The translations under genes and the position numbers were made by a program. A stretch of 64,000 nt of DNA, taken from the NCBI GenBank assembly GCA_902800215.1, contig CADCDS010000007.1:4010-68009 (forward strand), written 5' to 3'. This DNA comes from an uncultured Bacteroidales bacterium (GTDB lineage: Bacteria; Bacteroidota; Bacteroidia; Bacteroidales; Paludibacteraceae). Positions 19,405 to 24,066 of the stretch are shown in pieces (the first letter of the stretch is position 1; each line of letters opens with the position of its first letter). The notes beneath the pieces were generated by a model. The model made no database searches. It saw nothing but the letters and a program-made list of their open reading frames with translations, and was not told the origin of the DNA.

Positions 19405-20826
19405 TTATCGGATGAGGTAAATTTTCTCGGTGGCACGTGTGACGGCGGTGTACAGCCAACGCAGATATTCCCGTTTTTCAGTCTCCGTTTCCAACTGGCC
19501 GTTCGCCTTTAGCCATTCGCCGTTTTCGTCGATATAGACGTGTTTCCATTGTCCGCCTTGCGCCTTATGGCAGGTCACGCAATAGGCGAATCGCACCTGC
19601 AGCGCATTGTAATACGGTGACTCATAGATGCGTTTGATCAACTCCTTCTTGTTCTTTATCTCCGGATAGTCCTCGGCGATGCGGCTGAACAGTTCTCGCT
19701 GCAGCGTGTAGTTGGCTTCCGGACTATCCGTCGTCAAGGTGTCTAACCATACCAAGGCCTCGATCTCCCAACTGTAATCCACCGACCGCAAGGCCGCTTT
19801 GGCGAAATGAAAACCGTATAGTTCATGGGAATGATACAGGCGCTCGATCTCGAACATATCGCCATTGGCGATAAACTCCAGATCCTCGTACTCCTGCGCC
19901 CAGAAATAGTTGTTTTTCGTTACCATGATCCGGTCACCGTTCGACAGTTCATCCTCTTTCCACAGCACTCTCGCCCGAACACCCCCGTTATACAGGTTCG
20001 TCGTCTTGTTACTCCGTGCGATGATCAGCGTCTCTTCGGCACCCACTGTCCGCCAACTGTCCTCTATCGTCTCGATCAGCGCCTCCCCCGGCACCCGAAT
20101 GATATCTTTATTCGGAGTAATCGAAAAATCTCCAATCTCCAATTTCCAATCTCCAATCTTCTCCCTTATCCTCGTCGCCTCACTCAGTATCCCGCTGTCC
20201 AAGGCCTGACGTGCCACTTCCGTTAACCCGTAACCCGTCACCGATAACCCGTAACCCCTCATAAAATCCGCATCCAGCGCAGGACTGATCGAACTGCCTA
20301 CAGGCGGTAACTGCGCATCGTCGCCCAAGAGGAGTAGGGAACAACCTTGACCGCTATACACGTACTTTACTAAATCGTCCAACAGACATCCGCTACCAAA
20401 GGTAGGATTATCCCGCTGCCCGCTTAACATCGAGGCCTCATCGACGATGAAAAGGGTGTTGCGGTGTAAGTTATCGGATAAGGCAAACGCGTCCGAACCC
20501 AACTGCCGTTGCCGGTAGATCTTCTTATGAATGGTATAGGCCTGCCGTCCGGAATAACGGCTCAGCACTTTGGCTGCTCTACCCGTCGGGGCCAGTAACA
20601 CACACGGCTGTTTCAAACCTTCCAACGCCCGAACCAATGCACTCATCACGCTCGTCTTACCCGTTCCGGCGTAACCGCGTAAGACAAACGCTTTACGGGC
20701 TTCACGGCTGATGATGAACGCACCTAAGGCATCCAACAATCCCGCCTTCTCCGCATTCGGTTCAAACGGCAATTCCGCCTTAATTCGGTCAATTATGAAG
20801 TTTTCTAACATGCAATTAGCAATCAA
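19405..20826 (-). CDS. SF1 RecD-like ATP-dependent DNA helicase
   Basis: 473 aa with Walker A GYAGTGKTS, Walker B FIVDEASM, and C-terminal CVTCHKAQGGQW and YTAVTRATEK motifs. Carries two in-frame heptamer arrays. Confidence 0.8.
   Translation of the reverse strand: MIANCMLENFIIDRIKAELPFEPNAEKAGLLDALGAFIISREARKAFVLRGYAGTGKTSVMSALVRALEGLKQPCVLLAPTGRAAKVLSRYSGRQAYTIHKKIYRQRQLGSDAFALSDNLHRNTLFIVDEASMLSGQRDNPTFGSGCLLDDLVKYVYSGQGCSLLLLGDDAQLPPVGSSISPALDADFMRGYGLSVTGYGLTEVARQALDSGILSEATRIREKIGDWKLEIGDFSITPNKDIIRVPGEALIETIEDSWRTVGAEETLIIARSNKTTNLYNGGVRARVLWKEDELSNGDRIMVTKNNYFWAQEYEDLEFIANGDMFEIERLYHSHELYGFHFAKAALRSVDYSWEIEALVWLDTLTTDSPEANYTLQRELFSRIAEDYPEIKNKKELIKRIYESPYYNALQVRFAYCVTCHKAQGGQWKHVYIDENGEWLKANGQLETETEKREYLRWLYTAVTRATEKIYLIR
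20128..20160. repeat. heptamer micro-array (CTCCAAT type, CCAAT at 20132/20139/20146/20153), in-frame in the helicase gene
   Basis: Encodes ..KIGDWKLEIGDFS.. on the minus strand. Confidence 0.9.
20223..20259. repeat. heptamer micro-array (GTAACCC type, 5 units), in-frame in the helicase gene
   Basis: TAACCC at 20224, 20231, 20245 and 20252, with a degenerate unit at 20238. Encodes ..RGYGLSVTGYGLTE.. Confidence 0.9.
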
Positions 20827-20859
20827 AAATCACAAATTACAAATTTTTTTTGAAAAAAA

Positions 20860-20891
20860 CTTGTGTGTTTCAAAAAAATGTTGTACCTTTG
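20860..20891 (+). promoter_or_regulatory. promoter preceding the SRP-RNA candidate
   Basis: CTTG (20860-20863), N20, TACCTTTG (20884-20891). No ORF downstream. Confidence 0.55.
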
Positions 20892-22551: not shown

Positions 22552-22592
22552 TCAAATCTCCAATTTCCAATATCAAATATCCAATTTCAACG
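22552..22592. repeat. heptamer micro-array (CCAAT/TCAAA type, 6 units) spanning the rlmD stop to the S8 peptidase start
   Basis: Period-7 anchors at 22553, 22560, 22567, 22574, 22581 and 22588. Contains the rlmD TGA (22573-22575). Confidence 0.85.
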
Positions 22593-24066
22593 TCAGTTGA
22601 ACCACATTTTCAACATGTTGGGTATGCGGAAACATATCCACAGGCTGCACTTTCTCCACCTTGTATTGTTTGTCCAGCAGTGCCAGATCCCGTGCCTGCG
22701 TCGCCGGGTTGCAACTCACATAGACGATCCGTTTCGGTGCTGCATGCAGGATCACATCCACCACATCCTCATCCATTCCGGCACGAGGCGGGTCGGTGAT
22801 GATCACGTCCGGTCTGCCGTATTGGGCCACAAACGCGTCGTTCAGCACTTTCTTCATGTCGCCGGCAAAGAACAGGGTGTTCTCGATGCCGTTGATCTTC
22901 GAGTTTACTTTCGCGTCCTCAATGGCTTCCGGTACGTACTCGATACCGATCACCTGCCGCGCCTGCCGGCTCACGAAATTGGCGATCGTGCCGGTACCGG
23001 TATAGAGATCGTACACCAAAGGTTTCTCCTGTAACCCCTCACCCGTAACCGGTAACCCGTCAAAAGCAAAATCCCGTGCCACTTTGTACAGCTCATACGC
23101 CTGCTCGGTGTTCGTCTGGTAGAACGATTTGGGACCCACTTTGAACTGCAAACCCTCCATCTCTTCCATGATATAATCCTGTCCGAACCAAACCTTCACA
23201 TCCTGGTCGCCGATCGTGTCGTTGAACTTCAGGTTCTCCACGTACAGCAGCGCAATAATCTCCGGGAACGAGTTATGGAGGAAATTTAATAAATCTCCAA
23301 TCTCCAATTTCCAATCTTCAATCGGCTCCCCAAAGGAGACGACAAGCATCATCTCCCCTTTATGGTTATTGCGCAGCATCAGGGTGCGCAGCAGTCCCTG
23401 ATGGGTATGCTCATTGTAGAACGTCAGCCCGTGTTCCTTTGCGTACGCACGCACGCTATTCCTTATACGATTATTAATATCCGGCATCAAGTGACATTCC
23501 TCGATATCCAGCACCTTGTCAAACGCATTCGGAATATGAAAACCGATACCGGGTTCTTTTTGTAAATCTCCATTCTCCAATTTCCAATTTCCAATCTCCT
23601 CCGGAGTAAGCCATTTCCGGTCTGCACACGTGAACTCCAACTTATTCCGGTATTCATAGATATGCTTGCTGCCTAAGATCGGCGATATCTCCGGTAACTC
23701 GATCTTGCCGATTCGCGTCAGGTTATCGACGATCTGTTGCTGTTTGTATTTGAGTTGCTCCTCGTACGGCAGGATCTGCCATTTGCAGCCGCCGCATACC
23801 CCGAAATGCTTGCATCTCGCTTCACACCGCACCTTACTCGGCTCCACGATCCGGATCACTCTCGCCTCCATGAACGAGTGTTTCTTCTTCGTCACCTGCA
23901 GATCCACGATGTCTCCCGGCACGCAGTTCGGCACGAAGCACACGATCCCTTCTTGTGCTACCCGTAACCCCTCGTCCGTAACCGCTAACCGAGTAAGCGC
24001 CTTTCCTTCCGCCGCTACCCCCGTGATCTCCACATTCTCAATAATCGGTAAATTCTTCTTTTTCAT
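22573..24066 (-). CDS. rlmD: 23S rRNA (uracil-C5)-methyltransferase RlmD/RumA
   Basis: TRAM N-terminus, Fe-S cysteines CKHFGVCGGCKWQ, SAM motif DLYTGTGTI, and catalytic VSCNPAT. Start placed at MKKKNLPIIENV (24066), 22 nt from the -7 box. The track ORF to 24141 runs through the promoter. Confidence 0.9.
   Translation of the reverse strand: MKKKNLPIIENVEITGVAAEGKALTRLAVTDEGLRVAQEGIVCFVPNCVPGDIVDLQVTKKKHSFMEARVIRIVEPSKVRCEARCKHFGVCGGCKWQILPYEEQLKYKQQQIVDNLTRIGKIELPEISPILGSKHIYEYRNKLEFTCADRKWLTPEEIGNWKLENGDLQKEPGIGFHIPNAFDKVLDIEECHLMPDINNRIRNSVRAYAKEHGLTFYNEHTHQGLLRTLMLRNNHKGEMMLVVSFGEPIEDWKLEIGDLLNFLHNSFPEIIALLYVENLKFNDTIGDQDVKVWFGQDYIMEEMEGLQFKVGPKSFYQTNTEQAYELYKVARDFAFDGLPVTGEGLQEKPLVYDLYTGTGTIANFVSRQARQVIGIEYVPEAIEDAKVNSKINGIENTLFFAGDMKKVLNDAFVAQYGRPDVIITDPPRAGMDEDVVDVILHAAPKRIVYVSCNPATQARDLALLDKQYKVEKVQPVDMFPHTQHVENVVQLTLKLDI
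23040..23070. repeat. heptamer micro-array (GTAACCC type, 4 units), in-frame in rlmD
   Basis: GTAACC at 23041, 23055 and 23062, with CTCACC at 23048. Encodes ..DGLPVTGEGLQEK.. Confidence 0.85.
23293..23325. repeat. heptamer micro-array (CTCCAAT type, 4 units), in-frame in rlmD
   Basis: CCAAT at 23297, 23304 and 23311, with TCAAT at 23318. Encodes ..PIEDWKLEIGDLL.. Confidence 0.9.
23565..23599. repeat. heptamer micro-array (CTCCAAT type, 4 units), in-frame in rlmD
   Basis: CCATT at 23570, and CCAAT at 23577, 23584 and 23591. Encodes ..EEIGNWKLENGDLQ.. Confidence 0.9.
23962..23997. repeat. heptamer micro-array (GTAACCC type, 5 degenerate units), in-frame in the rlmD TRAM region
   Basis: Anchors at 23964, 23971, 23978, 23985 and 23992. 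Encodes ..LAVTDEGLRVAQEG.. Confidence 0.75.

Follow-up and report, generated by a model that had tools for sequence, protein, structure and literature searches.

Heptanucleotide repeat arrays in conserved genes and gene spacers of an uncultured Paludibacteraceae bacterium

The stretch of DNA examined in this study (hereafter the window) comprises 64 kb of contig CADCDS010000007.1 from an uncultured Bacteroidales bacterium of the family Paludibacteraceae, and carries the heptanucleotide ATTGGAG as short direct repeats both within and between its protein-coding genes. The genes concerned were identified by Pfam matches as those for a helicase (AAA_30/PIF1/UvrD_C_2), an S8 peptidase (Peptidase_S8), RlmD (tRNA_U5-meth_tr) and LptF/G (LptF_LptG), and the same annotations are obtained in a related contig, L201. 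Searches for RNA families in the window found only the signal recognition particle (SRP) RNA and one tRNA, and no family overlapping the arrays. The SRP RNA is the Bacteroidales small form (RF04183, 108 bits), located at 21002-21109 (+) between the helicase and S8 peptidase genes and convergent with the latter. Relative to L201, the window has approximately 120 extra nucleotides (~20884-21007) just upstream of the SRP RNA gene, within which lies the hairpin CCCCAAAAATTAAAATTATTTGGGG.

A scan for the 14-mer (ATTGGAG)2, allowing two or fewer mismatches, returned 19 matches in the window compared with 0.58 expected from shuffled sequences (largest shuffle, 3). These matches merge into seven arrays of approximately 4-5 units each, and the shuffles rule out a chance origin. 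A previous inspection of this DNA from its letters alone (the sequence-only reading) had spoken of eight copies; arrays are indeed present at the places it gave, but its own list contains seven. Translation reproduces the peptides it had proposed, namely EKIGDWKLEIGDFS in the helicase and PIEDWKLEIGDLL and EEIGNWKLENGDLQ in RlmD, and confirms that the arrays inside genes are in frame. The same is true of the ends ..NPIGD-stop for the S8 peptidase and ..LKLDI-stop for RlmD, and of the residues LEIGNWRL encoded upstream of the LptF/G ATG. As 7 is not a multiple of 3, successive units of each array fall in all three frames, and the resulting peptide has a 7-residue period. All seven arrays carry ATTGGAG on the strand of the flanking protein genes, as had also been noticed. 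The array at 21113-21146 begins 4 nt past the 3′ end of the SRP RNA, and is antisense relative to this adjoining transcript because the SRP RNA gene is on the + strand.

ATTGGAG is one of at least eight different period-7 units in the window, the others including GGGTTAC, CAGCCAA, AAAGGCG, GATTTAA, ATTTGAT, TAATGGC and GACTATC (Table 1). Tandem Repeats Finder (TRF) and an independent scan of our own, with shuffles as the control, called at least 16 period-7 arrays, compared with 0 in shuffles and with 0-4 arrays for each of the other periods from 4 to 16; TRF gives 4-6 copies at the listed period-7 sites. Arrays of 8-nt and 11-nt units are also present. Some units recur at separate sites: GGGTTAC is found in the helicase, RlmD and a class II aminoacyl-tRNA synthetase, CAGCCAA in a carboxylase and a type IX secretion system (T9SS) plug protein, and AAAGGCG in the inter-domain linker of RibBA and one further gene. 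Nine short spacers between co-directional genes consist almost wholly of 7- or 8-nt arrays (22551-22585, 25806-25850, 28363-28402, 30057-30090, 32181-32212, 37048-37078, 39882-39920, 52047-52085 and 60559-60592).

Table 1. Periodic arrays and segments located in the window, with their gene contexts.
Feature	Position	Strand	Context
ATTGGAG array, ~4.7 units	20124-20163	-	In frame in PIF1/RecD-type helicase; encodes EKIGDWKLEIGDF; insertion relative to L010, L012, L018 and L020
ATTGGAG array	21113-21146	-	Over the S8 peptidase stop (..NPIGD-TGA); stop supplied by variant unit ATTGAAT
ATTGGAG/ATTTGAT array	22551-22585	-	Encodes RlmD C-terminus (..LKLDI-TGA); occupies entire 21-nt spacer to S8 peptidase ATG
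ATTGGAG array	~23287-23325	-	RlmD residues ~247-260 (PIEDWKLEIGDLL); takes the place of ancestral non-periodic segment; predicted helix
ATTGGAR array	~23560-23601	-	RlmD residues 156-169 (EEIGNWKLENGDLQ); takes the place of family-wide conserved PWEVIEAAGGLDKIDSTY
Heptamer array GATTTGT AATTGGA GATTGGA AATTTTA AATTTTA GATTTTA	25806-25850	+	Occupies spacer from stop 25811-25813 to ATG 25851
ATTGGAR array	60559-60599	+	Occupies spacer from cytidine deaminase stop to LptF/G ATG at 60593
GGGTTAC array (GYGLSVTGYGL)	20213-20271	-	Helicase; overwrites conserved motif with zero length change; CAATTAC array in closest relative
GGGTTAC array (DGLPVTGEGLQ)	23029-23061	-	RlmD residues 336-346; loop insertion
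GCGGTTA-type array (AVTDEGLRVAQ)	23953-24010	-	RlmD N-terminal region; strain differences of +21 and +42 nt
ACAGAGC-type periodic segment	22156-22236	-	Within S8 peptidase; AAAGGCG-type array there in closest relative
GAGTGGA/GATAGTC heptamer array	21216-21248	-	Within S8 peptidase (GVESGKSIVDSQK)
AATGGCT/AAAGGCG-type periodic insertion	19489-19527	-	Helicase C-terminal loop (ENGEWLKANGQLE)
GGGTTAC array (VTGDGLQVTG)	53482-53508	-	N-terminal extension of class II aminoacyl-tRNA synthetase
CAGCCAA array	29902-29927	+	C-terminal region of carboxylase (PYC_OADA)
CAGCCAA array	49556-49592	+	T9SS plug-domain protein
AAAGGCG array	62652-62681	+	Linker joining two RibBA domains (residues ~218-227)
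GATTTAA array	30057-30090	+	Spans stop codon and occupies intergenic spacer
ATTTGAT array	52047-52085	-	Occupies spacer of two co-directional genes
TAATGGC/TAAAGGC array	37048-37078	-	Occupies spacer of two co-directional genes
8-nt array cassette (CGTCATGA/CGACATAA)	28358-28408	+	Gene junction; homologous to 32173-32223
8-nt array cassette, second copy	32173-32223	+	Different gene junction

The window was compared with syntenic loci of 80 Paludibacteraceae relatives, each covering approximately 20 kb (up to 10 kb on either side of RlmD) and amounting to 1.54 Mb with the window included. All sequences related to the window are metagenome-assembled; RlmD homologues with 70-94% identity come from uncultured rumen and gut Bacteroidales, which belong to the Paludibacteraceae wherever they are named. 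Genes in the related loci are simple longest-open-reading-frame calls, and arrays were clustered by their flanks into 104 sites so that orthologues are counted once. At a single threshold, there are 191 arrays of period 7, 33 of period 8 and 62 of period 11, compared with 9, 19, 9 and 10 arrays for periods 6, 9, 10 and 12, respectively. The density of period-7 arrays is 22 per 100 kb in the window, and in the relatives is 17, 11 and 7 as RlmD identity drops from 77% or more to 72% or less; were the window representative, its density would amount to several hundred arrays per genome. True ATTGGAG arrays were found within this sample only in the window, L001 and L201, at largely orthologous sites.

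At a looser threshold that yields 259 period-7 arrays, 115 (~45%) are internal to open reading frames (ORFs), 64 lie over a stop codon and 50 fall between co-directional genes, and thus a predominantly intergenic placement is not what we find for this family. Arrays usually have 4-5 units, and a sharp 'quantum' of array length can be dismissed, as period 7 shows only a mild mode at 30-34 nt. The 62 period-11 arrays are mostly intergenic and often longer than heptamer arrays, and their units vary by genome (examples are L041 15485-15601, L060 2739-2839, L043 1231-1298 and window 58579-58666). We found no report in the literature of heptamer arrays within genes of Paludibacteraceae or Bacteroidales.

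RlmD illustrates how such arrays are distributed within a conserved protein, given that it has five hypervariable places in a sequence that is otherwise 80-95% identical. At residues ~247-260 (site 3), more distant relatives have a 17-residue non-periodic segment of the type EKINDACRALLEWLH, whereas the window's clade has a 20-residue segment derived from a heptamer. The sequence of this segment is species-specific (ATTGGAG, ATTTCAG, AATTAAG, AGTCAAG, ATCACCA or AAGTCGA), with an identical register relative to the conserved downstream flank, and a few lineages carry unrelated arrays such as GGGTTAC, CTAAAGG or AGCCAAA. At residues 153-172 (site 2), PWEVIEAAGGLDKIDSTY is present family-wide, and scattered lineages, including that of the window with its ATTGGAR array, have arrays of near-equal length instead. 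The C-termini of RlmD orthologues are other array-derived tails (LKIKN, LKIEN and LRITN). These alignments uphold the suggestion that the RlmD segments are lineage-specific, with ~247-260 replacing the ancestral EKINDACRALLEWLH and 153-172 replacing PWEVIEAAGGLDKIDSTY.

The helicase peptide KIGDWKLEIGD is likewise lineage-specific, since it is a genuine insertion when compared with relatives whose sequence is 'R[NDE]-G[AIM][ICT][TQ][VI].PN'. At the helicase GYGL site, other species have arrays of AGTTATC, AATTATC or CAATTAC, all of which retain a TTA core, and therefore the Tyr, Leu and Val/Ile residues of the conserved motif are preserved. For example, the helicases of L002, L014 and L028 carry the unit AGTTATC at the position orthologous to 20213-20271 of the window, where it encodes SYQLSVVSYQL.

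The array sites of RlmD correspond to gaps or short insertions relative to the solved homologue 5XJ1. The sequence-only reading had raised the question of whether the inserted segments fall in surface loops, and this holds only in part. In the AlphaFold model of RlmD (mean predicted local distance difference test (pLDDT) score of 72), residues 336-349 do form a loop and residues 153-172 are of low confidence. However, the array at ~247-260 makes up the N-terminal half of a confidently predicted helix, H249-266 (pLDDT 86-92), which rules out a purely loop location. This helix is among the observations that could favour an explanation in which the WKLEIGD-type peptide is itself under selection as a functional module, for instance an interaction motif or an amphipathic heptad helix, and the periodicity of the DNA is a by-product. 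A 7-nt repeat necessarily gives a 7-residue (heptad) period, and through the TTA core retained among the alternative helicase arrays, a conserved motif keeps its Y, L and V/I residues. Nevertheless, sister species have unrelated peptides at the same sites (IKNEKLKIKN, ISNFKFQISN and ITNHQLPITN), even near-identical strains differ (see the alleles of RlmD site 2 below), the ATTGGAG unit also occupies untranslated spacers, and the host proteins are functionally unrelated. We therefore regard a selected peptide module as very improbable.

Differences between close strains are concentrated in the arrays. The closest contig, L201, is 93% identical to the window across 11.7 kb, and five of the seven segments with less than 60% identity are arrays. 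The two sequences are distinguished in RlmD by a clean +21-nt (three-unit) indel within a GCGGTKA array and, at site 2, by an ATTGGAR array in the window as opposed to an array of 8-nt period. In the S8 peptidase, ACAGAGC is matched by AAAGGCG, and in the helicase GGGTTAC is matched by CAATTAC without a change in length. Among 13 RlmD proteins at least 93% identical to that of the window, the N-terminal site differs by 0, +7 or +14 residues, and site 2 exists as three alleles, consisting of a heptamer array, an 8-mer array and the ancestral sequence. Within genes, unit numbers differ by in-frame multiples only, judging from the small sample formed by these 13 alleles and the 11.7-kb comparison, and array alleles differ by whole-unit replacements rather than by the adenine-specific changes that mark the variable repeats of diversity-generating retroelements. 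The 8-mer allele of site 2 is common to L201 and the distant L028, whose RlmD is only 75% identical, and recombination therefore appears to shuffle alleles between lineages. Positions 1-9700 of L201, upstream of RlmD, are not syntenic with the window; this region contains many small ORFs without a family match, three AraC-family regulator genes and a DUF5675 gene, and may be an inserted mobile region.

That the related sequences all derive from metagenome assembly would fit an artefact of assembly or binning of the metagenome-assembled genome (MAG). However, one of the 13 RlmD proteins above (P0123) matches that of the window at 100% identity, its arrays among them, and has records in assemblies from NCBI, ENA and Logan, and reading frames stay open through the arrays in dozens of independent assemblies. 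Moreover, arrays of 30-40 nt are far below the length of a sequencing read. We consequently attach practically no probability to an artefact.

The uniform orientation of the ATTGGAG arrays was originally assigned a probability of 0.8 percent under a 50:50 expectation, and was taken as a sign of transcription-coupled, strand-specific insertion or of selection at the RNA level for a GGA every 7 nt. On such a view, AUUGGAG repeats in mRNA would bind a GGA-binding or anti-Shine-Dalgarno-like factor and would have to be on the transcribed strand. The 0.8 percent calculation used the wrong null model, which we correct here. The two orientations are not equally frequent to begin with: in the genes of the window, counts of ATTGGAG and its six rotations that exclude the arrays are 49 in sense and 6 in antisense. 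All copies are therefore expected to be in sense if arrays grow from local seeds, and the probability that they are so at the background ratio is 0.89^7 = ~0.44 for seven arrays (0.89^8 = ~0.39 for eight). Nor can the copies be treated as independent, given that different sites of one genome share units.

A comparison of translated and untranslated arrays bears on the same question. Of 39 independent in-frame arrays, of any unit but with both orientations free of stops, 34 have the purine-rich strand in sense, compared with 23 of 45 untranslated arrays between co-directional genes. Because the bias is present in translated arrays and absent from those that are transcribed but untranslated, it belongs to translation rather than to transcription. 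Stop codons are part of this picture, as their avoidance explains the orientation of GGGTTAC and of ATCACCA (the complement of ATTGGTG), and in L006 and L010 every ATTGGTG array is antisense, given that a TGA would be read from the sense strand. Stop-codon avoidance is ruled out as the sole cause, as ATTGGAG, AAAGGTG, AAAGGCG, AAAGTCG and CAGCCAA are stop-free both ways, which for ATTGGAG had been correctly pointed out. Orientation by replication strand is also ruled out, since arrays change strand along with gene blocks in the window.

A wider sample was provided by a scan for exact (ATTGGAG)3 in metagenome contigs, which returned at least 120 contigs from many habitats with G+C contents of 0.30-0.68. 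Among the matches listed, and with simple ORF calls, in-gene copies are sense in 24 cases and antisense in 47, and those in co-directional spacers in 13 and 9 cases, respectively. Real hosts, backed by third-codon-position G+C content and Pfam matches, exist for both orientations. Antisense copies, which encode LQSPISN, occur in genes for UvrA, valyl-tRNA synthetase, an alpha-amylase and a flavoprotein (contigs L084, L109, L105 and L121), and sense copies in genes for a molybdopterin oxidoreductase and E1 dehydrogenases (L106, L188 and L090). A universal sense preference of the unit is thereby ruled out. In-frame heptamer arrays in housekeeping genes also extend beyond the Paludibacteraceae to unrelated, mostly high-G+C environmental contigs.

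What remains in favour of strand-specific insertion or RNA-level selection is that all seven arrays of the window lie on the strand of the flanking genes, including two that are untranslated (25806-25850 and 60559-60599), and that a GGAG is located 4 nt upstream of the LptF/G ATG in the latter. The two untranslated copies have p = 0.25 even at 50:50, and the background bias already predicts the orientation observed. This explanation also fails to anticipate that untranslated arrays are unbiased, that (ATTGGAG)3 occurs elsewhere in both orientations in genes and spacers, and that one array is antisense to the adjoining SRP RNA gene. Most arrays at like positions lack GGA altogether (GATTTAA, ATTTGAT, CAGCCAA and ATCACCA), and sister species carry unrelated units at the orthologous site. 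Thus, the proposal is not borne out and we consider it quite improbable; ordinary coding-strand composition together with selection at the protein level explains the all-sense orientation.

The arrays of one genome tend to resemble each other. Units agree within one mismatch in 14.9% of site pairs from the same genome and in 4.2% of pairs between genomes, and they are identical in 5.4% and 0.7% of such pairs, respectively. Examples include five ATCACCA/ATGACCA arrays within 13 kb of L006, ELKIKNE-type sequences at two RlmD sites of L004, and the seven ATTGGAG arrays of the window. In a few cases the similarity exceeds the unit. Two otherwise unrelated ORFs of L006 (274-345 and 6195-6266) have 72 nt in common at 93% identity, in which two arrays flank a 49-nt non-repeat core (TRNEVNRALAAEN), and this stretch is a lineage-specific insertion in the helicase. 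Two junctions of the window that are 3.8 kb apart (28358-28408 and 32173-32223) have homologous 50-nt cassettes of an 8-nt array, and further array-plus-flank pairs are found in L008, L041, L056, L058 and L064. Overall, arrays of the same unit agree in phase and boundaries; non-repeat sequence of 35-60 nt is common to a few pairs, and most have the unit alone in common. The pattern supports the view that templated copying may occur occasionally between array-bearing sites, for a minority of arrays only. A common order of variant units cannot serve as proof of copying among the ATTGGAG arrays, as the order differs between L201 and the window and is not diagnostic.

The same observations could also be read as the traces of a small mobile insertion cassette that is pasted as a unit by a dedicated or hijacked mechanism, with slippage being secondary. 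The three in-frame ATTGGAG copies of the window are near-identical in length, phase and boundaries (E-x-I-G/E-D/N-W-K-L-E-I/N-G-D-F/L; GAGNNG...GGAGATTT), and unit sharing within genomes, the L006 cassette with its unique core, the paired 8-mer cassettes, the array-plus-flank pairs and the equal-length replacement of conserved protein segments all fit this reading. However, the arrays lack terminal inverted repeats, target-site duplications and any consensus beyond the unit, and there are dozens of units that form a continuum of one-base variants. There is clear slippage-type polymorphism of 21 nt, and the units found at a given site share descent and keep their register with the conserved flank. 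Neither a transposase nor a reverse transcriptase linked to the arrays was noted, although no systematic search was made. We judge a mobile cassette of this kind to be unlikely. A related idea is that the arrays are self-propagating micro-cassettes whose loci template each other through template switching or gene conversion, sometimes together with unique flanks; we view this as possible, though doubtful. If it were true, such cassettes would overwrite family-wide conserved housekeeping segments at equal length and would give genomes their specific unit sets, which would amount to a form of concerted evolution and of protein-segment replacement not described before in bacteria.

In our assessment, the ATTGGAG arrays are probably one unit family of lineage-amplified heptanucleotide microsatellites that are filtered by translation, with occasional copying between sites. 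Slipped-strand mispairing in a 7-nt register would make and remodel short arrays (4-5 units, ~30-34 nt) throughout the genome. Inside genes, only net changes of 3n would survive, so that arrays would change by three units (21 nt, 7 residues), which is the step seen in the surviving products. Translation would then act as a filter, such that the arrays that persist are stop-free and have their purine-rich strand in sense, giving hydrophilic peptides, as the counts above indicate statistically. The places that tolerate arrays would be loops, linkers, termini, or a helix exchanged for an amphipathic equivalent; placement in the RibBA inter-domain linker, in the N-terminal extension of the aminoacyl-tRNA synthetase, at C-termini and over stop codons agrees with this filter. 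Combined with the sense bias of ATTGGAG in ordinary coding DNA, the filter would produce the uniform orientation. Homogenisation and fast turnover could account for the observed pattern of differing units at one orthologous site, and arrays would sometimes be copied between sites, most likely where the repeats seed template switching or gene conversion, as the few cases described above suggest. Such copying would give each genome its own favoured units, and homologous recombination would shuffle array alleles among strains, in keeping with their patchy distribution. For most copies, no function needs to be assumed.

Several considerations weigh against this microsatellite interpretation. Of slippage, only the expected products, the 21-nt steps, are observed. 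At the helicase GYGL site and at RlmD sites 2 and 3, conserved sequence has been replaced with almost no net change in length, which simple expansion does not predict, and which requires either deletion plus expansion or templated replacement. Every copy of the units GGGTTAC and CAATTAC shows differences at 3 of its 7 positions, although the two genomes have diverged by only 7%. This is fast for mutation and homogenisation; imported alleles may be responsible instead, since L201 has the 8-mer allele of RlmD site 2 in common with the distant L028. The preference for a period of 7 over 5, 6 or 8 is not accounted for by slippage. In addition, the data for related loci consist of syntenic loci with longest-ORF gene calls only, and the independence of their arrays is addressed by flank clustering only.

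Repeats of several known types resemble the arrays described here. Cyanobacterial short tandemly repeated repetitive (STRR) sequences are heptanucleotide repeats of prokaryotes. Rickettsia palindromic elements (RPEs) are dispersed, hairpin-forming elements of ~100-150 bp with a family consensus, and are found in frame in conserved genes. The sequence-only reading had likened the outcome to RPEs, and this likeness holds insofar as short repeats persist in the reading frames of housekeeping proteins, are restricted to the lineage when orthologues are compared (RlmD, helicase and S8 peptidase alignments), and add or replace peptide segments while the host gene is kept. Unlike RPEs, the arrays are direct micro-tandems of 25-40 nt without dyad symmetry, made from many units and with length variation of the slippage type. 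Phase-variable contingency loci also have non-triplet tandem repeats in reading frames, where a one-unit change could in principle switch the gene off. In contrast to such loci, the hosts here are genes for RlmD, the helicase, an aminoacyl-tRNA synthetase, RibBA, a carboxylase and a peptidase, with no bias towards surface or restriction-modification functions, and the arrays are short (4-5 units) with only in-frame, three-unit strain differences.

Heptamers are the most abundant class among genomes rich in repeats of 5-11 nt, and polymerase slippage has been proposed as their origin, according to the summary of Mrazek et al. 2007 given in PMC4679880. The repeats GGGAATC of Xanthomonas and GGGGA(T/C)T of Nostoc show a preference for approximately 4 units, for spacers between co-directional genes, and for the coding strand at stop codons or immediately after them (PMC4692102). 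Like these heptanucleotide long simple sequence repeats (LSSRs) and STRR sequences, the arrays described here consist of head-to-tail 7-nt units with a preference for approximately 4 units, occur at many dispersed loci, and have a patchy, lineage-specific spread. They are likewise enriched between co-directional genes and at or over stop codons on the coding strand, are over-represented compared with chance and with other unit lengths, and show whole-unit length polymorphism between strains. Moreover, the window unit GGAGATT is one base from the GGGGATT of Nostoc. There are also differences, in that dozens of units per genome are present here and one dominant G-rich unit there; ATTGGAG has GG only and most other units are A/T-rich, so that the G-quadruplex potential of the Xanthomonas and Nostoc type, which takes at least four runs of three or more G, is absent. 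The main departure from described cases is that 115 of 259 arrays are inside coding sequences, whereas 7-11% of Xanthomonas heptamers are intragenic (PMC4692102).

TAACTGA direct repeats, which follow a stop-codon logic, are known from Beggiatoaceae, Cyanobacteria and some Bacteroidetes (MacGregor 2015, PMC4679880). The arrays studied here resemble them in lying just upstream of starts or over stops, and in having an orientation set by three-frame stops. The AGTTATC unit in the helicase of L002, L014 and L028 is in fact a rotation of TCAGTTA, the reverse complement of TAACTGA, and its peptide SYQLSVVSYQL matches the LSVISYQ translated from 'reverse' TAACTGA arrays (PMC4679880). However, TAACTGA repeats involve one unit and are mostly intergenic, with in-frame copies peripheral in mostly hypothetical proteins, whereas the present arrays have many units and often lie at internal positions of housekeeping enzymes. 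A high density of genic short tandem repeats has been reported for Bacteroidota in a recent survey (PMC12699852). What differs in the present case is the multiplicity of units, the high share of arrays in conserved enzymes, the persistence of sites while their units change, and the overwriting of conserved segments at equal length.

Some other repeats were encountered in the window. The 8-nt cassettes at 28358-28408 and 32173-32223 contain a perfect 10-nt palindrome, CGTCATGACG, and their array begins at the TAA stop of the upstream gene. An 864-residue OmpA-family protein includes a repeat with a period of 96 nt (4.6 copies, 79% matches; 15385-15822, -), which probably encodes calcium-binding repeats similar to thrombospondin type 3, on the basis of a faint TSP_3 hit to the L201 orthologue. 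A perfect 23-nt tandem duplication (2.2 copies, 26489-26538) lies in the spacer of two + strand genes, and a perfect hexamer array, (CAGTAA)6.3, is located at 58500-58537 at the end of the gene at 56478-58505. Similar dispersed segments of 50-100 nt at 20853-20901, 35805-35863, 48392-48486 and 53736-53834 (..TTTTTT..GTACCTTTGCA(G/C)CCG) look like promoter regions of the Bacteroidetes type (TAnnTTTG -7 box) rather than mobile repeats.

The arrays have practical consequences for work on these organisms. They produce spurious N-terminal extensions and shifted stop codons in annotations, and they can mislead estimates of divergence that are based on alignment. Because they dominate the differences between close strains, they should be useful strain markers for rumen MAGs. 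With respect to the biology of the Paludibacteraceae, the presence of dense non-triplet microsatellites in the coding sequences of conserved enzymes runs contrary to the expectation that only repeats with 3n units are tolerated there. The arrays therefore constitute a natural experiment on how much 7-residue periodic sequence can be absorbed by loops, linkers and even helices. Given that any 7-nt repeat encodes a peptide with a heptad period, they also represent a simple mutational route to heptad-like segments.

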